This document shows positions 37,984 through 53,726 of a stretch of 64,000 nt of DNA, in pieces. The notes beneath the pieces were generated by a model. It was not told where the DNA came from, ran no database searches, and was given only the letters and a program-made list of their open reading frames with translations. The stretch is from an uncultured Spirochaetota bacterium. Its GTDB lineage: Bacteria > Spirochaetota > Brevinematia > Brevinematales > JAOACQ01. How positions within the stretch are numbered: position 1 is the stretch's first letter; every line of letters begins with the position of its first letter. A program made the position numbers and the translations under genes. The DNA lies in contig CAWAOD010000005.1 in NCBI GenBank assembly GCA_963783575.1, forward strand, positions 320,001 to 384,000, in the 5' to 3' direction.

Positions 37984-38508
37984 ATGAAAACATTCGGAGG
38001 AAAAGCTCTTTTTCTGGATAAATCGGACATTAATACGGATGAGATTATACCCGCGAAGTACCTGACGGAAATTACCAAAGAGGCTTTGAAGCCATATTTG
38101 CTGGAAGATTTAAAGATGGAAGGCTTAAATCCGGGAAGGGATATTCCGGGGAAAAGCGTTGTCATATCAAGGGCGAATTTCGGCTGCGGTTCATCGCGGG
38201 AGCATGCGCCATGGGCGCTTGAAATGAACGGGATTTACACGGTCATAGCGGAAAGTTACGCCCGTATTTTCCGGCAGAATATGTTCAATTGCGGAATGCT
38301 CGCGATAGAATTGCCGAAAGAAGTCATTGCTTCTATTTTTGATAATTATAAAGGCAGGAATGTGGAAATCGGCATAAATCTGGAAGGATCATTTCTGGAA
38401 ATCAAAGCCGAAGGTAAATCTGAGAAGTTCAACTTCATACTCAATCCTTTCGACAGGGAACTTGTCAAAGCCGGGGGCTGGGTCGATTACGCAGACGCTC
38501 ATTATTAA
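37984..38508 (+). CDS. leuD: 3-isopropylmalate dehydratase small subunit
   Basis: INTDEIIPAKYL, NFGCGSSREHA and ARIFRQN motifs. Confidence 0.9.
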   Translation: MKTFGGKALFLDKSDINTDEIIPAKYLTEITKEALKPYLLEDLKMEGLNPGRDIPGKSVVISRANFGCGSSREHAPWALEMNGIYTVIAESYARIFRQNMFNCGMLAIELPKEVIASIFDNYKGRNVEIGINLEGSFLEIKAEGKSEKFNFILNPFDRELVKAGGWVDYADAHY

Positions 38509-38530
38509 TGAGCATCATGCTCAACAAATT

Positions 38531-38792
38531 CCGCCCGAGAGGGCGGGTCATTGACGGGAAGAACGCTGCGAAAGAATATAACTTTTGCGTCCCTCCGTAA
38601 CTCACATCCTGTTCGGACAGATCTCCGGGCACGCGCGAGTCCTATCGCGCTCGCAAAAGTGACATTCTTTCTCCGCTATTCACTCCCGTAAATCTTGTAA
38701 GGAAGAACAGCCGGGAGATTTAATAACAATTCTTTTATAATCAATAATAATCTGAAATTACCTATTCTTTATTGTTATTGGCCGGCTGTTCT
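38531..38792. repeat. Structured non-coding region (branched long hairpin plus a second inverted repeat)
   Basis: ACGGGA...TCCCGT (38554-38689) with inner ACTTTTGCG/CGCAAAAGT; AGAACAGCCGG...CCGGCTGTTCT (38704-38792). Confidence 0.65.
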
Positions 38793-38856
38793 AAGGATTT
38801 TTGTGTAACTTTTATGTTTATGGAATAAGTGAAGATGGTTGTTTATAAAATGGTTC

Positions 38857-38886
38857 TTGACAATCAATAAATTAAAATACTATAAT
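38857..38886 (+). promoter_or_regulatory. sigma70-type promoter upstream of the cassette-like array
   Basis: TTGACA-18nt-TATAAT. Confidence 0.65.
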
Positions 38887-38999
38887 GAAAATATGTCTAT
38901 CCGTTGACCGGAAGTTTTATTGTTTTTTATCAAACAATGAATTCAATAACTGGGTTATTGTCCTAAAATGGCATGATATACGCAATACTTATATATCGA

Positions 39000-39008
39000 G
39001 TTAGGCGA
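39000..39008 (+). other. Putative integron core site (GTTRRRY) at the start of the first cassette
   Basis: GTTAGGCGA about 50 bp before the ATG; the gene is followed by TCGTACAAC at 39951-39959. Confidence 0.4.
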
Positions 39009-39054
39009 TAAATCACCTCACACTAATTTTACTAATAATTATAGAGGTTTATGT

Positions 39055-39930
39055 ATGAAATTAATTATTTTAACCGTATTAACGTTTCTTATTCAAATTA
39101 ACATTTATGGATTTCAATTCAGGTATATCAACACACCGGATTCAATTTCCTTTACTACCAAACTTTTATTGGAAGAGGGAATAAAACCAAAATATTTAGC
39201 TGAATGGACATCAGCTCTCAAATATTATAACGACATTGTTGATCCTTATTATAAAGAAAAATATATCTGGGAAGAGTCTAAAAAAAATTGGCTAAACTTT
39301 ACAGAAATATCTGAGTATATCAGTAATGAAATTTATTTTTATGATACAAATAATATACATGTTTCCGAAAAAGATTATTCGCTTCATTGCATGACTTCTT
39401 TTATATTATTAATGCGTGATAAAATAAGAGTAAATACTCCATTTTTTTATAAATATAAGGAAAATGAATCCAGTTCTGTTTATTCTGTTATAAAATGGTT
39501 AAAAAATCATAATATTTTTTTATCCGATAAAGAAAAAATGGCGTTTGAAACATTAAATAATTATTTTTCGATAACAAATAATATTGCTAAAGACAACAGT
39601 ATGTTTGACATTGCTTTAAATGAGCTAAATAAACGGTGGAGTAAAGAAGGTTTTCATTTCCCGAAAAATCCTAATTTAAAAGTATTACAGGTTTGGGCTA
39701 TTCAGATCAAAAAATACGTATATTTTTGTGATCATAATGCTATAGTGATAGAAAGAGATAATAAATTGTATTTAATTGAAAAAGAATCATATTATCATCC
39801 CTTTTCAATCTCAATATTTAAGGATTATGATGAATTGATAAAATATTTATATAGATTTTACTTTAATGATCCAAACGATGGAATTATGGTTACAGTAAAC
39901 GGGAAAATTGTTTGGAAGATACTTTATTGA
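39055..39930 (+). CDS. Exported hypothetical protein, DUF4300-like
   Basis: Signal peptide; LHCMTSF, DHNAIVI and IEK...HPF..SIF resemble DUF4300 motifs; very AT-rich. Confidence 0.5.
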   Translation: MKLIILTVLTFLIQINIYGFQFRYINTPDSISFTTKLLLEEGIKPKYLAEWTSALKYYNDIVDPYYKEKYIWEESKKNWLNFTEISEYISNEIYFYDTNNIHVSEKDYSLHCMTSFILLMRDKIRVNTPFFYKYKENESSSVYSVIKWLKNHNIFLSDKEKMAFETLNNYFSITNNIAKDNSMFDIALNELNKRWSKEGFHFPKNPNLKVLQVWAIQIKKYVYFCDHNAIVIERDNKLYLIEKESYYHPFSISIFKDYDELIKYLYRFYFNDPNDGIMVTVNGKIVWKILY

Positions 39931-40077
39931 ATTGATAGTGGGGTGGCCCTTCGTACAACAGCCTTATAGAAAAAGTCTAAATTAAATAACAGTTTTCCTT
40001 TCCATCCGGCTCCTGAAATTTTTATGTATAGTGTTGAACAGGCCTCAATCAGCCTGACAGAACAAGGGGGCATGCCC

Positions 40078-41427
40078 CATAAGCGCTAACTTGTTAAGGA
40101 AAAATATTCCACAATTTGCATTTTTCTTCTTCTCTTTTTATTAATAAGTCCTCTGGAAATTCTTATCCAATTTATAAAAATACCGGTAAGCGAAAGGCAT
40201 GGAATAATTACTCTCTGCATTTCATGAAGCATAAATGCAAATTCACGCCAACGGCTTACTATCCCTGCCCTGATTAATAATATCATAACCCCAGGGGAAA
40301 AAAGTTGGGCTTGCCAGATAAGTTTTTCGTTTAACAGGGCCACAAACAATTTGCCATACAGCCAAGCCTTGGAACTTTCATCTGTATATTTAGGCAAATG
40401 CCCAAGTTCCGCAAGTTGCTTAAAACGTTTAAATACTAATTCAACCTGCCATCGTAATCTATACCATCGCAGTATTTCTGCCGGCGGAAAACTTGACTCT
40501 TCAAAAGTTGTGAATACAATCACAAACTCCGCATATATTAGTGTCTCCGGTTTTAACTTCTGACTCTTTTTTATAGCATGCTTTTTAATACGTTTGTGAG
40601 CCTTAAGAATAGCTTGTTCAGATTTTCTTATAACACAAACTCTACCGGAAACAGTGGTTTTATCAGGGCATTGTAAATGAACATTCCATGAACATGCTTG
40701 TCCCGATTTCGAAACTTCTGATAATATATCCAGCCAATTAAATGGCTTACCGGATGAATCGCTAACTACAACATGATGAGGGCTGATGCGGACCAATAGA
40801 GAAGCTTTCTGCTCAACGGCAAACTTTATTCCCGGAGCCTGACCATAACCTCGATCACCTATAATATAATCACCCGGTTTCAAATCAAATTGTTTAAACG
40901 ACTCACCCGTCCCTATACCGTTCATTTGAGTTACGCGAAAGTAGTCACACTTGAATGTAGGTAGTCTAAGACTGTAATGAACCTTCCATAAACTTCCCGT
41001 CCTTCCAGGTTCTTTAACTACAGTAGCATCAAGAAGGCGAACTTCAAATCCATCTTTATTTTCCAGTTTCACACCTCGCTCCTCAAATAAACCTTCACAT
41101 AATGACGCCAACCAATCCGAACTCTTTCTTAATCGCTTCAGCAAGGCAACATCAGATAAATCTGCTAAATTGGCTTCACGAGCCCTTACTACTGTTTCTC
41201 TTAGAGAAAACCCGCCAGCCAGATGAATCAAAAGGGTTCTGAGCAAGTCCTCCTCAGATTTGCACTTACGCAATCCCCTTAATGCACCCGTTTCCTTTGC
41301 CTTTTCACGCCAACCTATTGGAAACATTGAAACTAAAATATTCCAATCTTCATTAATCATAGCCGCCTCCATATAAATATTATAGCTATGATTTGTAAAA
41401 ATATCAAGAATCAAGTTAGCGCTTATG
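40078..41427 (-). mobile_element. IS4-family insertion sequence (1350 bp)
   Basis: 16-bp perfect TIRs CATAAGCGCTAACTTG and CAAGTTAGCGCTTATG. Confidence 0.92.
40086..41360 (-). CDS. IS4-family DDE transposase
   Basis: LLDAT, GDRGY and YRLRWQVELVFKRFK (YREK motif); GGAGG RBS before ATG at 41360. Confidence 0.92.
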   Translation of the reverse strand: MINEDWNILVSMFPIGWREKAKETGALRGLRKCKSEEDLLRTLLIHLAGGFSLRETVVRAREANLADLSDVALLKRLRKSSDWLASLCEGLFEERGVKLENKDGFEVRLLDATVVKEPGRTGSLWKVHYSLRLPTFKCDYFRVTQMNGIGTGESFKQFDLKPGDYIIGDRGYGQAPGIKFAVEQKASLLVRISPHHVVVSDSSGKPFNWLDILSEVSKSGQACSWNVHLQCPDKTTVSGRVCVIRKSEQAILKAHKRIKKHAIKKSQKLKPETLIYAEFVIVFTTFEESSFPPAEILRWYRLRWQVELVFKRFKQLAELGHLPKYTDESSKAWLYGKLFVALLNEKLIWQAQLFSPGVMILLIRAGIVSRWREFAFMLHEMQRVIIPCLSLTGIFINWIRISRGLINKKRRRKMQIVEYFSLTS

Positions 41428-41573
41428 CCTTGTTCTGGCTACGAGGAAACTGACTAAATGGAAATGTCAAGAGTTTTTCCCATACCTGTACTCGGGTAAT
41501 TTCCCACCCCTTCCACAAGAGTATTTCCCATATGCTTCACAAGAGTTTTTCCCATAGGAGGAGGCAAGAATGG

Positions 41574-42323
41574 TTACTCAACCTCTTTATTCAAATTTTG
41601 TATTCTGTAAGATTCTCCGCTCAAGTTATAAATATTTGAATGATGTAAAAGCCTATCCAGAAGAGCGGTTGTCATAATCGGGTCTCCCATCATTTCAGCC
41701 CAATCCTGAAATCCCTTATTCGATGTTATCACAATTGATGTCTTTTCATACAATTCACTTACAAGACTAAAGAATAGATTTGCCTCCTTCTTTTCGATAG
41801 GTGTGTAACCTATCTCATCAATGATTAATAAGTGTGACTTCATCATCCGGTTCAGCCTGAAAGCAGAGCTTCTCTGGATGTCCGCCGTTTTCAGAAACTT
41901 AATGAGAGTAGTCATCCTTTCAAAGCAGACAATATATCCCTTTTCAACTGCCCGGATTCCGATACTAATTGCCAGATGCGTTTTCCCCAGCCCCGGAGAC
42001 CCAAAGAACAACAGGTTATGATGATTATCAATCCAGCAGAAATCCAATAGCTGTGAAACATCCATTTTAGATATTCCATTCACTTTTTCAAAATTAAAAC
42101 CTTCCACATCTTTACGGACTGGGAAGTGTGCTCCTGCCATATTCCGCTGAAAACGTTTTTCCACTCTATAATTCAATTCCAGAGAAAGCAGCCTCTGCAG
42201 AAAACTCAGATAAGACTCTTTTGCCTTTTCAGCCTCACCAATTTCCTCATCAATCCGTTTTATCATACCATTCAACCCGAGAGTTGTAAGCGCAGTTATG
42301 ATTTGTTCTCTTATCTTCAACAT
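41574..42323 (-). CDS. istB: IS21 helper ATPase
   Basis: GSPGLGKTHLA, LLIIDEIGY, TSNK and LLDRLLHH motifs. Confidence 0.95.
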   Translation of the reverse strand: MLKIREQIITALTTLGLNGMIKRIDEEIGEAEKAKESYLSFLQRLLSLELNYRVEKRFQRNMAGAHFPVRKDVEGFNFEKVNGISKMDVSQLLDFCWIDNHHNLLFFGSPGLGKTHLAISIGIRAVEKGYIVCFERMTTLIKFLKTADIQRSSAFRLNRMMKSHLLIIDEIGYTPIEKKEANLFFSLVSELYEKTSIVITSNKGFQDWAEMMGDPIMTTALLDRLLHHSNIYNLSGESYRIQNLNKEVE

Positions 42324-43870
42324 TGCCGGCCCCCGATGGAGTCACAGAGTCTCTGGTATTTCCCGATGTCTGATTTAGCTACTTCAAGATAGTGTTCAGG
42401 ATTCACTGAAGGCCTGACAATCTTTTCAACATTCAAGGGTATTTCTGCCTTTTCTGTTATAAAACAGTTCAGGTAATTATCCCACAAATCCTTCATGGAA
42501 TAACTATCACTCTCCAGGCAGTTTGAGATCGCTTGTGTAAGCTTCCCGGTATCAATTATCTTGTCCCTGAAGTATTTTCTTCCGGAAAGACATTGGTCCC
42601 TTACATAACGATTGAACTTCCTGAAATTACATTCAAGAAAATCCTTCCAGCCGGGAATATCAAAGTACCCGCTTACTTCTTCTTTCAATAACTGCACAGT
42701 CTTTCCCATTTCCCGGATCATTGCCCTGTTGGTTACAATCTGCCCCGGAATCACTGAAAGCCGGTATTCGGCGATTTGCTCTCCCGTTATCCTGTCAAAG
42801 ACAAAAAGCCGACTGCCCGTCTTGTAGATGTCCACCGAACCGTTCCTGTATTTTTCGGGAATATCATACTGGCTTGCATCAACTGCGATCCGGCATTTAT
42901 CGCTTACACTGCGCTCTTCCCTTGCTCCTATCCTGTCTTTACGGAATATCGAATTCCTGACAGATTGGAGATATGGTCTTTCCGTTTCAATCTCTATCAG
43001 CGGTATTTTCATTGTAGCCTGGGATATTCTCCCGTTGGCTTTTCTTTCCAGCCATTTCATCAGGCTTTCTTCCGCTTCCATTAAACTGTTGAACTCCCGG
43101 ACTGAGAAGAAACCGTGCTTGATGAATTTGACTACGTTTTCAATCTTTCCCTTACTTTCCGGGTCAGCAGGTCGGCACACATACATTTTAAGACCCATTT
43201 CCCCGATGAAATACTGAAAGTCTTTCGTGTAGATGATATCGCCTGAGTTCTCACTCGCAACCATCGTGCAGTCCTGATCGATGACAAGTTCATGCGGTAT
43301 CCCGCCCATATATGCGAAACAGTCCAACAGATGATTGATCAGGTCTTCTGTCCGGAATGGCCTCTCCTGGAGGGCCGCATACTTAAAACGACTGGCGGAT
43401 AACACCGCGGCAAATATGTAATACCTTCTGCCATATCTGTCGGTATATTGACCGAAATCAAGCTGGAGCTGCTTTCCATATGGCATGTCAGGCACTTTTG
43501 TGTAATACCGGCGCTTTTCATTCAAGGTAAGCTGCCCGCTTTCAATCAGGTAATGTACGAAATTCCTCATCGTATTTTCATTCGCCGGTAGTTTGCCTTT
43601 TACCTCCAATAAATAGTCATACACAGCAGACATATTCAGCCGGATGTAATCATTCTTTTCATATACTTTCAATATGTCTGTTTTTATTCCTTCGAATTCT
43701 TTTTCACGGAAAGAGAATTCCATCAGGCTTTTCTGGTATTCGGAATCGTTCATAGCCCAATATTTTCGGACTGTCTTAATATCTATTGACAGTTCCCGGG
43801 ATACACCATTTTTACTTTTCCCCAAAAGTTTCAGTTTTTTTATGTCCTGATACATAATATTTTTCACCAT
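42317..43870 (-). CDS. istA: IS21 transposase
   Basis: N-terminal HTH; QLDFG, LVIDQD and PESKGKIENVVK motifs. Confidence 0.93.
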   Translation of the reverse strand: MVKNIMYQDIKKLKLLGKSKNGVSRELSIDIKTVRKYWAMNDSEYQKSLMEFSFREKEFEGIKTDILKVYEKNDYIRLNMSAVYDYLLEVKGKLPANENTMRNFVHYLIESGQLTLNEKRRYYTKVPDMPYGKQLQLDFGQYTDRYGRRYYIFAAVLSASRFKYAALQERPFRTEDLINHLLDCFAYMGGIPHELVIDQDCTMVASENSGDIIYTKDFQYFIGEMGLKMYVCRPADPESKGKIENVVKFIKHGFFSVREFNSLMEAEESLMKWLERKANGRISQATMKIPLIEIETERPYLQSVRNSIFRKDRIGAREERSVSDKCRIAVDASQYDIPEKYRNGSVDIYKTGSRLFVFDRITGEQIAEYRLSVIPGQIVTNRAMIREMGKTVQLLKEEVSGYFDIPGWKDFLECNFRKFNRYVRDQCLSGRKYFRDKIIDTGKLTQAISNCLESDSYSMKDLWDNYLNCFITEKAEIPLNVEKIVRPSVNPEHYLEVAKSDIGKYQRLCDSIGGRQC

Positions 43871-44111
43871 TCCTGCCTTCCTTTAATGAATTTTCATTAA
43901 AGGTAATCTTCAAGCCTCTCTATGGGAAATCTGTTTGTGACAGGTATGGGAATTTCATTTATTGCTACCCTGGTAAATTAGTTTATCATTCCACCATGAT
44001 ATTTTATCAATTACAATAATCCTGTGCAGTACGCCAGTACTGCTGGCGACACGAGGTCGCACGGCTTTACGGCAACTATTGTTTGAAAAGAACCTTATGG
44101 GTCAAATTGAT

Positions 44112-44140
44112 TTGAAAACTTTTATGTTTAGTTCTATAAT
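44112..44140 (+). promoter_or_regulatory. Outward-facing promoter in the right arm of element X copy 1
   Basis: TTGAAA-17nt-TATAAT; identical at 47609-47637. Confidence 0.6.
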
Positions 44141-44467
44141 GAAACAATAAGTGTTTCGTCAGGAATAAAAGTGTTACCATTGTCTTGACGCATATGTGTT
44201 ACCCATGTCTTGAAGTCGGAACGGCGCTTTAGTGTTTAAAAAGTCCGCCGTCCTTGACGGAATTAAAAAATAGATTATTAATGGTTGGAATCGGTTGAAA
44301 TGAGTGGAAAGATGTTCATCAGATAATTTTTTTTCTGAGATTATGAAATTTTTAATACCCCTAGATTAATACCCCTAGATATTATTGTTATAGTCTGTTA
44401 TACTTGACAACTAGTGATACCAGAAGTAATTTCTCTCATAATTTAAAGACTCTTTTAGGAGGCAGTT

Positions 44468-45037
44468 ATGAGAAGTTTGATTGAGGCAACCTTTATGAGC
44501 ATCGATGGTGTTATTGATGCTCCAAAATTAGTAGAAGAGGCACAACCGTATTGGCTAAAAGACGAGGAAAATGCAAAGTATTCCTACAATCTCCTATTCA
44601 ATGCTGACGCATTACTTCTCGGCCGAAAAACGTATGAAGTTTTCGCAAAAGCATATCCAAATATGGCAAGTTCAACACCCGAAGTTCAGAAAGATTTTGT
44701 GGATCGTATGAATACTATCCCAAAATATGTTGCCTCAACAACCCTTACTCAGACAATATGGAATGCATCTATCATCAAAGACAATATTGCCGAAGAAGTC
44801 TTCAAGCTAAAACAGCAATCAGGCCAAAACATTCTGAAATACGGAACCGGTATACTTGACCATTTGCTGATAGAACATAACTTGATCGATTTTTTATATA
44901 TTTATTTGTATCCTTTCGTCTTTGGGCATGGTATAAGGCTCTTTGAAGACATAAGAGCAAGTAAGCATCTGAAACTTGTTGAAACTACAACTTTCAAGAG
45001 CGGCACTTTGATCCTTAAGTATAGTTGCAAGACATAG
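44468..45037 (+). CDS. Dihydrofolate reductase family / RibD C-terminal domain protein
   Basis: MSIDGVI, LLLGRKTYE, PKYVASTTL and FGHGIRLF motifs; AGGAGG RBS. Confidence 0.9.
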   Translation: MRSLIEATFMSIDGVIDAPKLVEEAQPYWLKDEENAKYSYNLLFNADALLLGRKTYEVFAKAYPNMASSTPEVQKDFVDRMNTIPKYVASTTLTQTIWNASIIKDNIAEEVFKLKQQSGQNILKYGTGILDHLLIEHNLIDFLYIYLYPFVFGHGIRLFEDIRASKHLKLVETTTFKSGTLILKYSCKT

Positions 45038-45377
45038 CGGCTTCAATAATAAAAATGTTATTACCATTTCAAACGGCATCCATGCCGTTTTTGTACTGAC
45101 TTTTGCCAAGCCCTTTGTCTAACAGCCTTGTAGAAAAAGTCTAATTTATATCCATACAGTTCTAAAAAATTTCATTAGCCGGAAAACACCGATTTTCTAT
45201 ATGTTGAGAAGATACTGCTTAAATGCCCCCGCAGTATGAGCGCCATTTCTGATTGAGCTTCACTCTAATCAAAGGGAATCTTGGTATAACAACCGTTGTT
45301 ATTTCCCTATAATGAGCAATCGACTTTTTCAAATTTCGCGGACAGGAAGTCCGCGACCTAAGCCTGCCCTGAGTTTG

Positions 45378-45476
45378 CAGACTGTGTGAAAACTCGGCTT
45401 TTTGAAGCGTAATTCTATATTTTCCGTTTTGTAACTTCTATAAATACATAATGAAAAATTGTTTTCACACAGCCTG
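45378..45476. mobile_element. 99-bp MITE sharing ends with the local IS1182
   Basis: CAGACTGTGTGAAAAC ... GTTTTCACACAGCCTG, flanked by TTG direct repeats. Confidence 0.9.
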
Positions 45477-45783
45477 TTGACGAAGGGAGCGCAGCAGGAC
45501 TGCAAAGTGAGGCTCTTTAATTATGAGAAAATCTTTAATAAAACCCGGAATAACAACACCTCATTGAATAGGCACAAGGATGTGCCATGACAAATTTACT
45601 TTGATTACACAGGCAGCAGAACGGTTTGCTCGCTTATAAGCTTGGGAAGTTCTGCCAGCAACACGATGTTGCAGAAATGGCGTTAATGCGTAGGGGTGGT
45701 TCTTTCTTCGCATACCTTCTTCCTTGCCATCAAGAAAGAAGGTGTGAAAGCCAGATTTGGAGCAAGAGCCTGCCCTGAGCTTG

Positions 45784-47474
45784 CAGACTGTGTGAAAACT
45801 CAGTAAAATTTTATAGTAAAATCGATTAATTATACAAAGACTCCATTTTTTGATATATTTTTCAAGCTAAAAAAATCTTAGTTTAAAAAATCTATCCGAA
45901 TACGATAAACGATGGTTTATTAGCATCAAACCAGAGTCATAAGTCTCTTTATTCCCAATATATTCAATACTTTTATTAAATTATGAATGAATCCTGCCAA
46001 ACTGGATTCCGTCAGAACGCCATCCTTTCCCTTCATTAAAAAATAACTGTAACCCATATTCCTTTTTATCGATCCAAATGGATGTTCACATATCTCTTTC
46101 CTTTTCTCTATGATCTTTTTCCCGGCTTCAGAACGAATTTTCCTCTTGAAGTTCTCAATTTCTTCTTTTCTAACTGGTACTTTGATACTTCGTCCTTCCA
46201 CGCTTTCAGTACACTTATTTCTTACTTCACATTGGCTGCATAAGCCGCACTTGTACCTGACTATCTCTTTTCCTCCATTGACCTTCTCTACTTTTTTCCC
46301 ATTTCTCACTAATGGGTTTCCCTCCGGACAATAATAAACATTTTGTCCCGGATCATATTTGAATTTATCAACCTGGTATTCTTCAGCAGGTACTCCTTTA
46401 TTATCTTCTTTGCCTCGAATCCTTGCCTTATGTCCGTCATCCGGATTCGGCATATATACGTTATGTCCCTTATCTATACATTCCAGTATCTGCGGTTCGC
46501 TGTAATAACCGGCATCCGATACTTTGACCGTTTCAGTCTCTACCTTAAGCTCGTCCTTTATTTCTTCTACTCGGTCACACATTCCTGCCATCTGTTTGAT
46601 ATCATTGTTTTCATTCGTCACATCAATCACCACAATCAGTTTATTCGCATCATCTACTGCCATCTGCAGATTATATGCAATGTCGGATTTCCCTTTATCA
46701 TTCATAAACCGGCTTTCCGGGTCATTTGAATAATATTTCTCCATTTCAGGATTTCCCTCAAAAATCTTTTTAATAGCCTCAACTTTATCCTTTTTTGTTT
46801 TCATTTTCTTTAAACGTTCCGCTATCTTTCCGGAAAGAAATTCAAATTCATTCTTTTCTTCCTTATCGTTCTTATCCATCTCATTCAAATATTCTTCGAT
46901 CTTTTGATCTATTCTATGTATGATTTCTTCTATGTTTTTCCTATGATAAACATTGTTATTGTGGTTTTGCGCACTGATCTTGGTTCCATCAATTCCAACA
47001 ACGTCAAATGATAAAAGCCCGGCTTTATGACATATCTTCAAAAATTCTCTGAATATCGACTGTATTCCCTTCTTATTATCTTTCCTGAAGTCGGCAATCG
47101 TCTTGAAATCCGGCGCTAGTCGTCCAGTCAGCCACATCAACTCTGTGTTTCTTCGGCACTCTCTCTCTAATTTCCTGCTTGTCCTGATTTTATTCAAATA
47201 TCCGTAAATATAGATTTTTAAAAGTATTTCGGATTTATATGAACTTCTGCCGGTTGATGCTTCTTTTACTTTAAAACCAACTCCTTTCATATTTAGCTTA
47301 TCAACAAAAATATCTATAAACCTTACCGGATCTTCTTCTCCTAACAGATCTTCCAGTGTTTCATTGAACAGAACTATCTGATCCCTTGATTCTCCCTCAA
47401 TATGCTTCATCTTTTACTCCGATTATTTTTGTTCTAATAATTATAGCATATTTACTGTGTTTTCACACAGTCTG
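45784..47474 (-). mobile_element. IS1182-family element copy 1 (1691 bp)
   Basis: TIR CAGACTGTGTGAAAAC(T/A)CAGTAAA, 24 bp with one mismatch; TTG duplication. Confidence 0.95.
45926..47410 (-). CDS. IS1182-family transposase
   Basis: PDFKTIADFRK, IDGTKI, DAGYYS, YYCPEG and EHPFGSIK motifs. Confidence 0.95.
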   Translation of the reverse strand: MKHIEGESRDQIVLFNETLEDLLGEEDPVRFIDIFVDKLNMKGVGFKVKEASTGRSSYKSEILLKIYIYGYLNKIRTSRKLERECRRNTELMWLTGRLAPDFKTIADFRKDNKKGIQSIFREFLKICHKAGLLSFDVVGIDGTKISAQNHNNNVYHRKNIEEIIHRIDQKIEEYLNEMDKNDKEEKNEFEFLSGKIAERLKKMKTKKDKVEAIKKIFEGNPEMEKYYSNDPESRFMNDKGKSDIAYNLQMAVDDANKLIVVIDVTNENNDIKQMAGMCDRVEEIKDELKVETETVKVSDAGYYSEPQILECIDKGHNVYMPNPDDGHKARIRGKEDNKGVPAEEYQVDKFKYDPGQNVYYCPEGNPLVRNGKKVEKVNGGKEIVRYKCGLCSQCEVRNKCTESVEGRSIKVPVRKEEIENFKRKIRSEAGKKIIEKRKEICEHPFGSIKRNMGYSYFLMKGKDGVLTESSLAGFIHNLIKVLNILGIKRLMTLV

Positions 47475-47712
47475 TTGACGAAGGGATGCTCCATGATATT
47501 TTTTCAATTACAATAATCCTGTGAAGTACGCCAGTACTGCTGGCGACACGAGGTCGCACGGCTTTACGGCAAATATGGTTTAAAAAGAATCTTATGGATC
47601 AGATTGATTTGAAAACTTTTATGTTTAGTTCTATAATGAAACAATAACTTGTTTTAGGAATAAAAGTGTTACCCATGTCTTGAGGTCGGACCCTATCAGC
47701 CTTTAGTTTAAT

Positions 47713-47741
47713 TTGACATTACACATTGTATTGTGTATAAT
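47713..47741 (+). promoter_or_regulatory. vapBC promoter with overlapping operator
   Basis: Consensus TTGACA-17nt-TATAAT, with inverted repeat TACACA-6nt-TGTGTA between the boxes. Confidence 0.8.
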
Positions 47742-47762
47742 AATGTATATTTGGAGGTAATT

Positions 47763-47969
47763 ATGGCAACTAATTTAAACATTGATATAGAGTTATTAGA
47801 TGCGGCATATGATATTAGCGGATTGAAAACAAAAAAAGAAACAGTGAACTTAGCTTTAAAAGAATTTATTCAGCGGCATAAACAAAAAGAAATACTAAAA
47901 TTTTTAAACAAGATTGATTATGATGACTCCTATGACTATAAAAATGAAAGAAATAGGATTCAAAAATGA
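47763..47969 (+). CDS. vapB: Type II antitoxin, VapB family
   Basis: MATNLNID...GLKTKKETVNLALKEF; overlaps the toxin start (ATGA). Confidence 0.88.
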   Translation: MATNLNIDIELLDAAYDISGLKTKKETVNLALKEFIQRHKQKEILKFLNKIDYDDSYDYKNERNRIQK

Positions 47970-48397
47970 AGATTTTAGTTGATACATCTGTTTGGTCTGA
48001 AGCATTACGAAGAAAAGATAGTTCTTTAAAATCAGAAGATACTTTCATTTACCAACTTGTTACAAACGATGAAATAGTTATTTTAACTGGAATAATATTA
48101 CAAGAAATATTAACAGGTATAAATAGTAATAAACTTTTTCATAATATTCAAAATACCCTGAGAGATTTTAGTTTTATAGAACCAGGAATTGAAGATTATA
48201 TTTATGCCGCTGAATTGAAAAACAAGTTGATGAAAAAAGGTATAAATGCAGGGTCAATAGATTTTCTTATTGCAAGTATTGCAATAAATAATGAACTATA
48301 TCTTGCAACTTATGATAATGATTTTGATAATATTTCCAAAAATAGCAATTTAAAAGTAATTACTCAAGAAAATTATAAGAATATGAAGAAATTTTAA
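47966..48397 (+). CDS. vapC: PIN-domain toxin, VapC family
   Basis: ILVDTSVW, QEILTG, DFLIA and TYDNDF motifs. Confidence 0.9.
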   Translation: MKILVDTSVWSEALRRKDSSLKSEDTFIYQLVTNDEIVILTGIILQEILTGINSNKLFHNIQNTLRDFSFIEPGIEDYIYAAELKNKLMKKGINAGSIDFLIASIAINNELYLATYDNDFDNISKNSNLKVITQENYKNMKKF

Positions 48398-48679
48398 ATA
48401 AACAGGCGGTAAAACGTGGCACAACGGCCTAGTAGAAAAAGTCTGGTTTACATCCATCCGGTTCTAAAAATTTTATTAGCCGGATAGCAGAAATTTTCTA
48501 TATGTTGAAAAGATACTGCTTAAGTGCCCCCCGCAGTATGAGCGCCATTTCTGACTAATCTTCACTCTGATCAAAGGGAATCTTGGTATAACAACCGTTG
48601 TTATTTCCCTATAATGATCAATCGACCTTTTCGTATTTCGCGGACAGGAAGTCCGCGACCTAAGCCTGCCCTGAGTTTG

Positions 48680-50370
48680 CAGACTGTGTGAAAACTCAGT
48701 AAAATTTTATAGTAAAATCGATTAATTATACAAAAACTCCATTTTTTGATATATTTTTCAAGCTAAAAAAATCTTAGTTTAAAAAATCTATCCGAATACG
48801 ATAAACGATGGTTTATTAGCATCAAACCAGAGTCATAAGTCTCTTTATTCCCAATATATTCAATACTTTTATTAAATTATGAATGAATCCTGCCAAACTG
48901 GATTCCGTCAGAACGCCATCCTTTCCCTTCATTAAAAAATAACTGTAACCCATATTCCTTTTTATCGATCCAAATGGATGTTCACATATCTCTTTCCTTT
49001 TCTCTATGATCTTTTTCCCGGCTTCAGAACGAATTTTCCTCTTGAAGTTCTCAATTTCTTCTTTTCTAACTGGTACTTTGATACTTCGTCCTTCCACGCT
49101 TTCAGTACACTTATTTCTTACTTCACATTGGCTGCATAAGCCGCACTTGTACCTGACTATCTCTTTTCCTCCATTGACCTTCTCTACTTTTTTCCCATTT
49201 CTCACTAATGGGTTTCCCTCCGGACAATAATAAACATTTTGTCCCGGATCATATTTGAATTTATCAACCTGGTATTCTTCAGCAGGTACTCCTTTATTAT
49301 CTTCTTTGCCTCGAATCCTTGCCTTATGTCCGTCATCCGGATTCGGCATATATACGTTATGTCCCTTATCTATACATTCCAGTATCTGCGGTTCGCTGTA
49401 ATAACCGGCATCCGATACTTTGACCGTTTCAGTCTCTACCTTAAGCTCGTCCTTTATTTCTTCTACTCGGTCACACATTCCTGCCATCTGTTTGATATCA
49501 TTGTTTTCATTCGTCACATCAATCACCACAATCAGTTTATTCGCATCATCTACTGCCATCTGCAGATTATATGCAATGTCGGATTTCCCTTTATCATTCA
49601 TAAACCGGCTTTCCGGGTCATTTGAATAATATTTCTCCATTTCAGGATTTCCCTCAAAAATCTTTTTAATAGCCTCAACTTTATCCTTTTTTGTTTTCAT
49701 TTTCTTTAAACGTTCCGCTATCTTTCCGGAAAGAAATTCAAATTCATTCTTTTCTTCCTTATCGTTCTTATCCATCTCATTCAAATATTCTTCGATCTTT
49801 TGATCTATTCTATGTATGATTTCTTCTATGTTTTTCCTATGATAAACATTGTTATTGTGGTTTTGCGCACTGATCTTGGTTCCATCAATTCCAACAACGT
49901 CAAATGATAAAAGCCCGGCTTTATGACATATCTTCAAAAATTCTCTGAATATCGACTGTATTCCCTTCTTATTATCTTTCCTGAAGTCGGCAATCGTCTT
50001 GAAATCCGGCGCTAGTCGTCCAGTCAGCCACATCAACTCTGTGTTTCTTCGGCACTCTCTCTCTAATTTCCTGCTTGTCCTGATTTTATTCAAATATCCG
50101 TAAATATAGATTTTTAAAAGTATTTCGGATTTATATGAACTTCTGCCGGTTGATGCTTCTTTTACTTTAAAACCAACTCCTTTCATATTTAGCTTATCAA
50201 CAAAAATATCTATAAACCTTACCGGATCTTCTTCTCCTAACAGATCTTCCAGTGTTTCATTGAACAGAACTATCTGATCCCTTGATTCTCCCTCAATATG
50301 CTTCATCTTTTACTCCGATTATTTTTGTTCTAATAATTATAGCATATTTACTGTGTTTTCACACAGTCTG
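48680..50370 (-). mobile_element. IS1182-family element copy 2 (1691 bp)
   Basis: Nearly identical to 45784-47474; same TIRs and TTG flanks. Confidence 0.95.
48822..50306 (-). CDS. IS1182-family transposase
   Basis: Protein identical to 45926-47410. Confidence 0.95.
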   Translation of the reverse strand: MKHIEGESRDQIVLFNETLEDLLGEEDPVRFIDIFVDKLNMKGVGFKVKEASTGRSSYKSEILLKIYIYGYLNKIRTSRKLERECRRNTELMWLTGRLAPDFKTIADFRKDNKKGIQSIFREFLKICHKAGLLSFDVVGIDGTKISAQNHNNNVYHRKNIEEIIHRIDQKIEEYLNEMDKNDKEEKNEFEFLSGKIAERLKKMKTKKDKVEAIKKIFEGNPEMEKYYSNDPESRFMNDKGKSDIAYNLQMAVDDANKLIVVIDVTNENNDIKQMAGMCDRVEEIKDELKVETETVKVSDAGYYSEPQILECIDKGHNVYMPNPDDGHKARIRGKEDNKGVPAEEYQVDKFKYDPGQNVYYCPEGNPLVRNGKKVEKVNGGKEIVRYKCGLCSQCEVRNKCTESVEGRSIKVPVRKEEIENFKRKIRSEAGKKIIEKRKEICEHPFGSIKRNMGYSYFLMKGKDGVLTESSLAGFIHNLIKVLNILGIKRLMTLV

Positions 50371-50522
50371 TTGACGAAGGGATGCTCCATGATATTTTTT
50401 CAATTACAATAATCCTGTGCAGTACGCCAGTACTGCTGGCGACACGAGGTCGCTCGGCTTTGCGGCAACTAAGCCTCGATTGTTGTAAAAATGATAGAAG
50501 AATAACACTACAAGGAAATGGT

Positions 50523-51039
50523 ATGATACTTCCCAAAATCCGTGATAAAAGATTTATCACAGTTCGTCGTGGTGGCGTGTTATTGGACGAAGACCATCAT
50601 CTATTGGCGATTTGGACAGCGCAATGTGCTCAGCATGTATTGCACTATTTTGAAGAAGTTCGTCCAAATGATGACCGTCCACTTCGTGCAATTGAATTAA
50701 CTCATGCATGGGGTAAATGGAGAAATTACAGTGAGACAAGCCCTGGATGCCGCAGGTGCATCAAATGCGGCAGCAAGAGAATTGTCCGGTGCAGCAAAAT
50801 ATGCGGCTTTATCCGCTGGCCAGGCTATTGCTGTAGCTCATGTTGCTGCACATGAATTGGGTGCAGCTGCCTACGCAATCAGGGCCGTAATGGCTGCATC
50901 TTCAGAAGATAAAAAGGATTTTGTTAAATATCAGGAATGTCAATGGCAACGAGACAGGCTTCCGGAAAAAATTCGTGATCTTGTTATTGACGATCAACGA
51001 TTGCGAAATGATATATGCTGGTTTGTTTTTAATTGTTAA
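50523..51039 (+). pseudogene. Imm5-like putative immunity protein, +1 frameshift at the G4 tract 50710-50713
   Basis: MILPKIRDKRFITVRRGG...DDRPLRAIE...HAW joins VNGEI...AGQAIAVAHVAAHELGAAAYA...ECQWQRDRLP. Confidence 0.75.
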
Positions 51040-51087
51040 AATGAAAACTATGAAGAGATTGATATTGATGGATTAATGAACAAAAGC

Positions 51088-51128
51088 AACCTTCTTTCTT
51101 GCCTTCAAGAAAAAGGTATGAAAGCCAT
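51088..51128 (+). repeat. Fragment of element X (internal hairpin)
   Basis: ACCTTCTTTCTTGCCTTCAAGAAAAAGGTATGAAAGCCA resembles ACCTTCTTCCTTGCCATCAAGAAAGAAGGTGTGAAAGCCA at about 45714-45753. Confidence 0.7.
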
Positions 51129-51147
51129 ATGCCGCGGCTTTGCGGCA

Positions 51148-52509
51148 TCATGCGGTTCCGCCGTACTTCTTCCAATTCCTTCTTGTAAAATAAAGCATCA
51201 ATGCTATAACCGGAATAAGCGCCAGCGCCCACCAGCTTAATTTAAAAACCTGAAGAAGCCAGTAACGGAAGAGGTTTCCCCCGTCAATAAAGCTTGTAAT
51301 TACACCGTCATAACCCTCAAACTTGAAATTTATCTTTTGAGCGATCGATGTAAAGAACCCCGCCAGCTGAGAAGCGGCATAGAGTTTTCCGATTATTATT
51401 GGAATCCCGATAAGGAAACCCCGAATCACATCGCCTTTAACCGCAACCATCACAAGAGCCATCATTCCGACAATATTGGGGAGATCTCCAAGTGGTATGA
51501 ATTTTATTCCGGGAAGTATAAAGGCAAGGATCAATGCCACCGGGATCAATAGAAAAGCGGTAACCACAATGGATGAGTTGCCTACGATTACTGCGACGTC
51601 AAGTCCTATTGAATAGCCGGCCATATCCGGAAAATATTTTTTTAGGAAATTCTTCATTCCTTCTGAAAATATCATTAAACCGGCTGACAGGACACCCGAC
51701 ATCAAAGGCAGGATATAAACCACAGCCGCCATGCTGAAAGCCAGTTCAAGGATTTCACGAATCCGATACCTGGCACCTATACCGAGTAATGTACCGATTA
51801 TGAATCCTATTATCATCGGTTCTCCAAGAATTCCGATTTTCTTTTTTATATTGTCAGGATTTGCTTTTAGTTTATTTATGAATGGAATTTTAGCAATTGC
51901 TTTATCTCCAATTACTCCAACTGGATAGTAAACCGCTGCCGATAGCGTTGAAATGGCAATTCCGGGCAGGCCTGAAAATTTGTTCACAAACGGTGCGCTC
52001 CAGTCTGCGAGCTTAAGGGTCACAATCGATGCGATAACTGCGGCGGCTATCGATAAATAAATATTGCCGGTTGCTTCCTGAACAAGCGCTCCCATAATTA
52101 TAAAATGCCAGTAGTTCCAGATGTCTATGTTTACGATTTTAGTCCATTTAAAAAAAAGCATGGCAAAATTTACCGCCAGGAGAAGAACAAGTAACAACGG
52201 CGCAAGTCCATATGACCAGGTGATTGCGGCAAGCGGAGGCCAGCCGACATCCAGCACATTGAGGTGAAGGCCGGTCTGTGAAATCAGTGATTTTACAGCC
52301 GGGCCGATGCTTTTAACAAAAAAGCCGAATATAACAAAAATCCCGATAAACCCGATTCCGATTGTAAGAGATGATTTGATTGCCTGTGTTAATTTGATCT
52401 TGAAAGTAAGAGAAAAAATGAATATTATCAGGGGTAGCATCACATACGCTTTGAAACTCAGGATATAATTTATGGCTTCGCTAATTATATGCATTAGGAA
52501 CTCCGGCAA
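51148..52509 (-). CDS. PTS galactitol-family IIC component
   Basis: DVGWP, NIDIWNYWH, GEPMIIG, IGLD and PLGDL motifs of the GatC family; start uncertain. Confidence 0.88.
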   Translation of the reverse strand: MPEFLMHIISEAINYILSFKAYVMLPLIIFIFSLTFKIKLTQAIKSSLTIGIGFIGIFVIFGFFVKSIGPAVKSLISQTGLHLNVLDVGWPPLAAITWSYGLAPLLLVLLLAVNFAMLFFKWTKIVNIDIWNYWHFIIMGALVQEATGNIYLSIAAAVIASIVTLKLADWSAPFVNKFSGLPGIAISTLSAAVYYPVGVIGDKAIAKIPFINKLKANPDNIKKKIGILGEPMIIGFIIGTLLGIGARYRIREILELAFSMAAVVYILPLMSGVLSAGLMIFSEGMKNFLKKYFPDMAGYSIGLDVAVIVGNSSIVVTAFLLIPVALILAFILPGIKFIPLGDLPNIVGMMALVMVAVKGDVIRGFLIGIPIIIGKLYAASQLAGFFTSIAQKINFKFEGYDGVITSFIDGGNLFRYWLLQVFKLSWWALALIPVIALMLYFTRRNWKKYGGTA

Positions 52510-52655: not shown

Positions 52656-53726
52656 TTGATGAATAAAAATCTGTTAAGTTATTATTTAAATTCAATCGAA
52701 CCTTATACTCCCGGTGAACAGCCAAGGAATAGCGATATTATTAAGCTGAATACAAACGAGAATCCCTATCCTCCTTCACCGAAAGTTCTGGAGGCTATCT
52801 CTGAGATCAAGAGTGAAAACTTGAGGCTTTATCCCGATCCGGAATGCCTTGAGCTGAGAGAAGTTATAGCTTATTGCTACCGGCTTCGTTACGACGAGGT
52901 TTTTATCGGGAACGGTTCGGATGAGATAATATCAATGGCATTTATGGCTTTTTTTAAAAAAAGGAAACCTATTTTGTTTTCTGATATAACATACAGTTTT
53001 TATAAAGTCTGCGCCTCACTTCTGGAAATTCCATATGAAATCGTTATACTTGATTCAGATTTCAATTTCATAATTGATCAATATAATAAGGATAATGACG
53101 GTATTATAATGGCAAATCCGAACGCTCCGACCGGCATGGAAATATCTCTTGATATTATCGAAGAAATTGTTAAATCAAATCCGGGACGGGTTGTTATTAT
53201 CGATGAAGCATATATGGGGTTCGGCGCGGTTTCAGCCGTTCCGCTGATCAAAAAATATCCGAATTTATTAATAATCCAGACATTATCGAAATCTCACTCA
53301 TTAGCGGGTATAAGGGTCGGATTTGCTCTCGGCGATAATTCCCTTATCGACGGACTATGGAAGGTTAAAAACTGCTTTAATTCATATACGGTTGATAGAA
53401 TTGCCCAGGCTTGCGCTAAAGCATCTTTGCTTGATTTTGATTATTTAAAAAATACCTCTGGGAAAATTATCGGAACCAGGGATTGGTCGATAAAAGCTTT
53501 GAAAGAAGCCGGTTTTAATGTATTAGATTCTAAAGCCAATTTTATCTTCACGGCCAATAATGCTGTCAGAGCTCCGGTAATTTTTGAATTTCTGAAGAAA
53601 GAAGGCATTCTTGTGAGACATTTTAATGATAAAAGAATAGAAAACTACCTCAGGATAAGTATAGGGCAGGATGAAGAAATGAATGCGTTGCTTGAGTCAT
53701 TAAAAAAGATTATTCCACAGAAATGA
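52656..53726 (+). CDS. hisC: Histidinol-phosphate aminotransferase
   Basis: KLNTNENPY, GNGSDE, NPNAPTG, DEAY and TLSKSHSLAGIRVG motifs. Confidence 0.95.
   Translation: MMNKNLLSYYLNSIEPYTPGEQPRNSDIIKLNTNENPYPPSPKVLEAISEIKSENLRLYPDPECLELREVIAYCYRLRYDEVFIGNGSDEIISMAFMAFFKKRKPILFSDITYSFYKVCASLLEIPYEIVILDSDFNFIIDQYNKDNDGIIMANPNAPTGMEISLDIIEEIVKSNPGRVVIIDEAYMGFGAVSAVPLIKKYPNLLIIQTLSKSHSLAGIRVGFALGDNSLIDGLWKVKNCFNSYTVDRIAQACAKASLLDFDYLKNTSGKIIGTRDWSIKALKEAGFNVLDSKANFIFTANNAVRAPVIFEFLKKEGILVRHFNDKRIENYLRISIGQDEEMNALLESLKKIIPQK

Follow-up and report, generated by a model that had tools for sequence, protein, structure and literature searches.

An integrase-less, integron-like gene array in a Spirochaetota genome whose attC sites were probably destroyed by IS1182 and IS481 homing elements

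Four cargo loci without attC sites

How can a row of unrelated genes look like the cassette array of an integron and have neither an integrase gene nor an intact attC site, a repeated element standing between the genes instead? This question is raised by a 64,000-nucleotide stretch of DNA from an uncultured Spirochaetota bacterium (the window; G000:C5:320001–384000, where G000 is the source genome, 4.9 Mb in 18 contigs, and positions outside the window are given by contig), for which a first-pass annotation, made from the letters alone, had described a cassette array with a large structured repeat, X, in place of attC sites. The array lies between leuD (ending at 38508) and a phosphotransferase system (PTS) EIIC gene (51148–52509, minus strand), an interval that holds four co-oriented cargo loci, four full insertion sequences (IS) and one miniature inverted-repeat transposable element (MITE). 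The cargo loci, all on the plus strand and identified as had been proposed, are a DUF4300 gene (39055–39930; PF14133, E 3.9e-14), a RibD_C/dihydrofolate reductase (DHFR)-like gene (44468–45037; PF01872, E 1e-16), a vapBC toxin–antitoxin (TA) pair with its own promoter (47713–48397; vapB 47763–47969, vapC with a PIN domain 47966–48397, promoter 47713–47741 with 12 of 12 consensus positions) and an imm5-like gene (50523–51039), which was recognized as two Pfam halves (Imm5_like) and is frameshifted near 50710, the shift being either real or an assembly error. We conclude that the locus is most probably a decayed, integrase-less, integron-like array whose attC sites were wrecked by homing elements of the IS1182 and IS481 types. 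The idea that attC sites had been replaced was thus essentially right, but the replacement is not one large structured repeat.

The array opens with a Pc-like promoter, TTGACA-18-TATAAT (38857–38886, plus strand), predicted to be active from its 12/12 consensus match; promoter-like sequences in total numbered 48, vs 43.8 ± 6.5 in shuffles, and show no excess. Behind it is an attI-like site (38976–39006, plus strand), in which the heptamer GTTAGGC (39000–39006) begins with the crossover triplet GTT (39000–39002); promoter and heptamer had both been named before and both are confirmed. A 27-nt motif with this terminal GTT occurs in seven genome copies (raw count, the window copy at 38976–39002 included), which are similar up to the GTT and divergent beyond, and the wider region 38849–39004 shares 87 % identity with another array's head (C16:120306–120152). 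One copy lies directly 3' of a tyrosine recombinase gene at C5:457129–458194. The other six heads (C4:7113, C5:115001, C9:382262, C9:129797, C16:120180 and 38976 in the window) stand away from the recombinase, the window copy having none alongside.

Intact attC-like sites of ∼150–255 nt, with cores such as GTACAAC...GTTGTAC, are present elsewhere in G000, and the bottom strand of the one site folded (n=1) forms a long stem with its cores paired (z −3.46; 0/200 shuffles). A profile of the attC right half, built from 12 seed sites, found 32 sites, 29 of them scoring >20 (11 seeds and 18 new); with the same profile no intact attC half was detected in 38500–51300, the 29 lying elsewhere in the genome. 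There is also no intI gene in the array, as the first-pass annotation had stated. In Cury et al. (2016; PMC4889954), integron arrays and clusters of attC sites without integron-integrases (CALINs) are described with several of the traits seen here, namely an attI-like head, a promoter (a predicted one here), small co-oriented cargo, R'' boxes past the stop codons, TA cargo and an integrase that is not nearby. The present locus differs from them in having no intact attC, a recombinase without the IntI domain and several integrase-less attI heads per genome. A CALIN comprises two or more attC sites with no intI nearby; here intI is lacking, yet attC is lacking as well, as would befit a former array rather than a present CALIN.

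What does remain of the attC sites appears to be their R'' boxes (all plus strand): GTACAAC (39953–39959) past the DUF4300 gene, GTCTAAC (45117–45123) at the end of a pre-attC leader (45067–45123) past the DHFR-like gene, and GCACAAC (48419–48425) past vapBC. The first of these had been said not to fit RYYYAAC strictly; GTACAAC is however no poor core here, being the R'' heptamer of intact attC-like sites at C5:460328, 461136, 464893 and C9:383760. Directly behind all three AAC cores the same ∼20-nt motif starts at the identical point (39960, 45124 and 48426). It had been given as C(A/G)GCCT; a common motif there is, but the initial C is the last base of the AAC and the element starts one nucleotide later.

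X begins with the end of an attC-homing IS1182

The first-pass annotation saw the same element X three times. As delimited, and with IS removed, the three spacers measure 379, 779 and 384 nt, and they overlap only in part: X1 and X2 match over 28 nt at their heads and 195 nt at their tails, X1 and X3 over nothing but an 85-nt end, and X2 and X3 over 266 nt (91 % identity) and a further 118 nt. As the copies are not homologous along their full length, X is a mosaic and not one repeat. Its lengths and contents vary between copies, which is not the make-up of a MITE, and a second terminus or target duplication is absent from every X copy.

X starts with an IS1182 terminal repeat, and its first ∼20–90 nt belong to the end of such an element. 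Orphan IS1182 ends form the heads of X1 (39960–40025, the end downstream of the transposase gene, with the terminal repeat of full copies), X2 (45124–45210) and X3 (48426–48679, including the first half of a repeat called M; 91 % identical to X2). Full copies of this attC-homing IS1182 measure ∼1.7 kb, have imperfect terminal inverted repeats of 17 nt and lie within attC sites with the transposase antisense to the cassettes; the copy at C16:115957–117672 scores 278.6 bits with NF033551 (cut-off 270), and a relative in another genome, G011, scores 277.4 bits. A BLAST search with 70 nt from inside the element collected 27 IS1182 ends. AAC stood directly 5' of 26 of them, far more often than chance would give (genome background 1.5 %), so that the AAC bias expected of X-type ends was found genome-wide, and a co-oriented stop codon lay ≤130 nt away for 24. 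The far ends of two-ended copies show AAC and then an attC arm in 8/8 cases, and since the left flank varies as TAAC, GAAC or CAAC, it is AAC that is duplicated at the target. The copies grade from two-ended elements through one reduced to 1299 nt down to stubs of 40–158 nt, a series of progressive decay. Beyond G000, 18 loci of IS1182 relatives were returned and 14 read (three own-genome loci and one partial locus were excluded); these 14, from eight genomes, lie at AAC in 12 cases and at GTT in two. A genome-contig scan for the form termed IS1182-B gave two loci, one of them informative, and the X head pattern had one match in metagenomes, in an unrelated context.

Several further observations concern these elements. 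At C16:118846–118937 the attC-homing IS1182 has a two-ended MITE of ∼110 bp, which sits within an attC site and has AAC duplicated. Five IS1182-B copies (C5:474567, C5:477313, C5:479964, C10:75675 and C10:80794) share an identical split of the transposase frame, which suggests that the element went on transposing in a broken or recoded form. A second type of scar is found at C13:203400–214000 and C12:23370–25100, where AAC plus a 40–65-nt IS1182 stub leads into another shared filler and then, before the next gene, into a GTT motif of the attI-like kind.

Hairpin-forming target DNA is known from IS1272/TnSha1, members of the IS1182 family (PMC4923244), and the AAC cores might accordingly reflect a mere preference of the IS for hairpins after genes, at a locus that never was a cassette array. 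The DHFR homologs read do lie outside cassettes (attC flanks at 0/4 loci read, nine returned). We nevertheless consider this explanation extremely unlikely. Recognizable attC sites are split by full IS copies, which largely refutes it, and the attI-like head is common to six other sites. The leader before X2 is an attC leader in G011, where it continues into an intact attC (L028) or another IS end (L031). Homologs of imm5 and vapBC also bear cassette marks: an imm5 homolog in genome G008 (94 % identity, single frame, same 5' leader) has GCCTAAC right past its stop, and three of the eight vapBC homolog loci read (10 returned) are flanked by attC on both sides. Homologs of vapBC and imm5 are thus sometimes found in attC cassettes, those of DHFR at none of the loci read; for DUF4300, none of 54 candidates in genome contigs was confirmed as a relative. 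The two elements differ in their target choice. For IS1272 the same source describes deletion of part of the stem, no duplication and no sequence consensus, whereas the attC-homing IS1182 enters in one orientation at a fixed AAC, which it duplicates.

X1 and X2 end in an IS481-type terminus with a predicted promoter

The last 120–140 nt of X1 and X2 comprise the final part of an IS481-type transposase gene and the right end of the element (44081–44222 in X1 and 47576–47692 in X2, both plus strand). Over 147 nt the X1 tail has 72 % identity with the 3' end of an intact G011 IS481, and its translation resembles the last 27 residues of that transposase. For the parental transposase the best family is NF033577 (E 1.2e-63; 215.3 bits vs a cut-off of 224). 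Within the last codons of the transposase gene falls an outward promoter sequence, TTGAAA-17-TATAAT (44112–44140 in X1, 11/12 consensus positions; 47609–47637 in X2). Eight IS481 tails were found in G000; seven extend to the promoter, and both hexamers are kept in all seven. Judged by these hexamers, the retained end probably supplies a promoter to the next gene. IS481 family ends read TGT...ACA; the left tips here are TGT or GGT, and the right tips GACC or TACC, not ACA. A RAYT/HUH origin had been considered for the motif ending X and was dropped, the motif being the IS481 right end.

Five of the eight tails stand behind an AAC-linked IS1182 end, with differing junctions, and the same AAC/IS1182/IS481 scar was observed upstream of a gene in G001, a same-genus genome that is 57 % complete. 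The target of the intact element was read from its relatives (34 loci examined, of which seven lack a 5' end and two from a ∼40 % identity clade were not parsed). In the clade of ≥52 % identity, 18 of 19 loci lie 18–21 nt past GTT, with attC R' in the displayed flanks; in the ∼40 % clade, 0/6 parsed loci do. One G011 array carries an intact IS1182 and an intact IS481, each at its own target position. The ≥52 % clade was recovered from 15 genomes of four spirochaete families, and its apparent habit of inserting at a set spacing downstream of the attC crossover may be undescribed.

Other attC-homing elements are known. The IS1111-attC group reportedly comprises IS specialized on attC; it has the DEDD transposase of the IS110 family, in contrast to the IS1182 and IS481-like DDE enzymes found here. 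Different from that group is also the target position: the IS1182 inserts at the R'' AAC and duplicates 3 bp, and the IS481 inserts downstream of R', just outside attC. Group IIC-attC introns (Leon et al. 2010; PMC3001079) likewise home to attC, block read-through from Pc and bring an outward promoter, Pout, for the next cassette; our elements are ends of DNA transposons, with a promoter predicted by consensus match, and neither a reverse transcriptase open reading frame nor, above the Rfam gathering score, a structured intron RNA was found in the array, which sets it apart from such introns. No papers on homing of IS1182 to attC, on homing of IS481 to attC or on a cassette platform without the IntI domain were found in the literature searched, of which few subscription journals were part.

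A possible route from mobile cassette to fixed gene

Taken together, the modules suggest the following order of events. Cassettes would have been inserted in trans at the attI-like site at 39000 by an Xer-type recombinase without an IntI-specific domain. An IS1182 would then enter antisense right past the AAC of R'', duplicating AAC, and an IS481 in the cassette sense, about 19–21 nt past the G of the R' GTT, so that the two bracket one attC. Deletions and IS-borne rearrangements may subsequently have stripped the inner parts of both elements plus the attC stem between them, leaving a product in which the gene and its AAC are followed, in order, by an IS1182 end, a filler, the 3' end of an IS481, promoter included, and the next gene; the filler would be a common intergenic repeat that attracted further IS. 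Loss of the attC body between the invaders would explain why no GTTRRRY precedes cargo 2 and 3. Behind a full IS1182 the attC is regenerated; behind the scars it is not, and the scarred cargo genes should therefore be fixed, no longer excisable by attC recombination. Erasure of attC would thereby be one concrete route by which a mobile cassette becomes a fixed, expressed gene, and two attC-homing IS that erase attC sites would conceal arrays from attC-based searches. The scars might even be a selected end state, a working second-stage system with locked genes, a strong IS481-end promoter and integrase-free reshuffling via the repeats; we think this unlikely, though if true it would constitute a recurrent domestication route for the cassettes of an integron-like platform lacking the IntI domain.

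A number of points weigh against this history. The exact IS that contributed the start of X (sub-type ...AAAAGTCT) was found in no intact copy. Nor does G000 have a full IS481 of the type in question, for which reason the history in two steps is drawn from relatives; 12 of the 15 IS481 genomes belong to one genus and are therefore not independent. The closest vapBC homolog (64 %, G008) lies outside a cassette, and attC flanks are absent from the closest DHFR homolog (83 %) as from the other DHFR loci read, so that cargo 2 was perhaps never a cassette. Finally, one junction between the end of M and the IS481 tail is common to X1, X2, C5:482425 and C4:13042. Together with the 91 % identity between X2 and X3, this recurrence implies that part of X was block-copied or converted, independent deletion being insufficient.

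The last point opens the way to another explanation, in which X arose once as a composite, non-autonomous element, bounded by an IS1182 end and, opposite it, an IS481 or M end; IS1182 transposase or gene conversion would then have copied it whole, promoter included, into attC R'' sites. An intact IS1182-B transposase does exist, and the M/IS481 junction at four places, the 91 % identity of the X2 and X3 heads and the preservation of both promoter hexamers in 7/7 tails of sufficient length all agree with such copying. We regard it as improbable all the same, as neither an AAC duplication nor an attC remainder is seen past any X tail, the junctions at C4:5162, C9:122713 and in G001 are different, the middle of X1 is unrelated to that of X2 and is joined via an IS21 without target duplication, and X3 has no IS481 tail. 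Stepwise decay of attC sites between two homing IS remains the explanation that we favour.

The middle of X and later insertions

Between head and tail X consists of repeats that also occur elsewhere in the genome. In X2 this is the non-coding repeat M (45215–45783, plus strand), with two halves that resemble hairpins of repetitive extragenic palindromic (REP) sequences and with up to ∼30 genome matches per position. As a side observation, M (45215–45757 in the window, at 32 other loci and also in G001, L029) contains an inverted repeat, has a sharply defined 3' end and matches no Rfam family. Its 3' end closes the middle of X1 (43994–44078, plus strand; 96 % identical to 50387–50471), with further copies at C5:72710 and C11:630225; M ends are also seen in X2 (47487–47575, plus strand) and in X3 (50383–50468, plus strand, without an IS481 tail). 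The X fragment reported past imm5 (51089–51149, plus strand; 88 % over 43 nt to X2) is indeed a repeat fragment, but it is the end of M and not the AAC-linked end.

These data bear on the proposal that a separate gene-capture system, independent of any integrase, uses X as its unit of recombination and expression. In the window an X head does follow every AAC-bearing cargo, and two contigs of a related population (each a single contig of depth ∼3, aligned at 82 % likeness) show an altered order, one joining imm5 to an X tail and the other joining 44190 to 50470. The proposal is unsupported and, in our view, extremely unlikely to be correct: the heads are IS1182 termini, no second terminal repeat exists, and the M core lies at 33 genome loci, only three of them within 250 nt of an AAC-linked IS1182 end. 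Intact, ordinary attC-like sites serve other arrays of the genome, the array has no dedicated recombinase, and a search of 38400–51400 against Rfam gave no family above the gathering score, one weak match below it being rejected. Repeat-by-repeat ordinary recombination can alter order as well. It fits the two low-depth contigs, one of which is without the REP-targeting IS, as does strain variation, at which they weakly hint. X as a new recombination site is thus a false lead removed.

The filler has itself been invaded. A palindromic repeat in X1 (40058–41438) is split by an IS4 (40078–41427; transposase gene 40086–41414, minus strand) and is followed by an IS21 (41459–43993, minus strand; istA 42317–43870, istB 41574–42323). 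A 5-bp target duplication flanks nine of the 12 two-ended IS21 copies but not the window copy, which marks a rearrangement point inside X1. X2 contains a 99-bp MITE of a second IS1182 type within M (45378–45476) and a full copy of that type (45784–47474, minus strand; transposase gene 45926–47410; NF033551, 347 bits), of which X3 holds another (48680–50370, minus strand; transposase gene 48822–50306) that is 99.7 % identical to 45767–47575, flanks included. This type targets REP sequences: all 32 full copies have REP flanks, and 23/32 a 3-bp duplication.

An integron-like platform

The recombinase gene at C5:457129–458194 (L001), 86 kb from the array, is frameshifted twice (real or assembly error) and is co-oriented with a ∼25-kb cassette array; a second gene of this type was not found in G000. 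It and two G011 recombinases (L046, L053) are Xer-type proteins with an N-terminal extension of ∼80 residues and no IntI domain; in each case attI and a long array of cassettes share the gene's orientation. Two identical recombinase-plus-attI copies in G011 part just past the GTT, as attI sites with different first cassettes would be expected to do. The intact G011 recombinase has 24 residues at the position where IntI4 (2A3V) has 66, and no protein exceeded the integron-integrase cut-off (TIGR02249) in G000, nor in any of 12/12 family genomes. According to Cury et al. (2016; PMC4889954) and Ghaly (2022), IntI is defined by an additional domain near patch III. As this domain is absent from the recombinase, we name the platform integron-like rather than integron. 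If the Xer-type enzyme does perform cassette recombination, as we suppose, this would be another case of an attI/attC platform whose recombinase lacks a domain said to be necessary for integron activity.

Genomic setting

No close strain for a comparison of gene order turned up: DNA searches of 40 relatives gave short matches only, in five genomes for the array head and in two for X; among contigs from three sequencing runs (shares 0.06–0.07) none spans the array, and no RNA run was found among those containing the genome. In G001 a single 303-aa gene stands behind leuD, and after it comes a gene resembling that at 52656 of the window, without the array, and the neighbours of leuD differ again in the four other family genomes read. 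The interval downstream of leuD is thus variable, as had been anticipated, and none of the three observations that the first-pass annotation had set against its own reading was made (X-type ends without an AAC bias, cargo homologs never beside attC and an invariant interval). Downstream of leuD in G011 (L040) there is a fragment that we take to be group II intron-like, and also a small two-gene pair; the leuD spot may therefore attract insertions.

G000 as a whole is rich in IS, matches to the IS1182 profile alone numbering 68. From leuD to the array promoter (38526–38850) runs a further intergenic repeat with ∼20 genome matches. The palindromic repeat of X1 is also found at a Y1/RAYT-like gene (C3:121285), and genes of this kind with palindromic repeats are located at C3:121030–121239 (L013, frameshifted) and C4:184483–184686 (L014). 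An IS4 of the window type is inserted in or beside such a palindrome in five of nine two-ended copies, and a third IS1182 type (C5:71000–72660 and kin) occupies the loop of the hairpin that ends repeat M.

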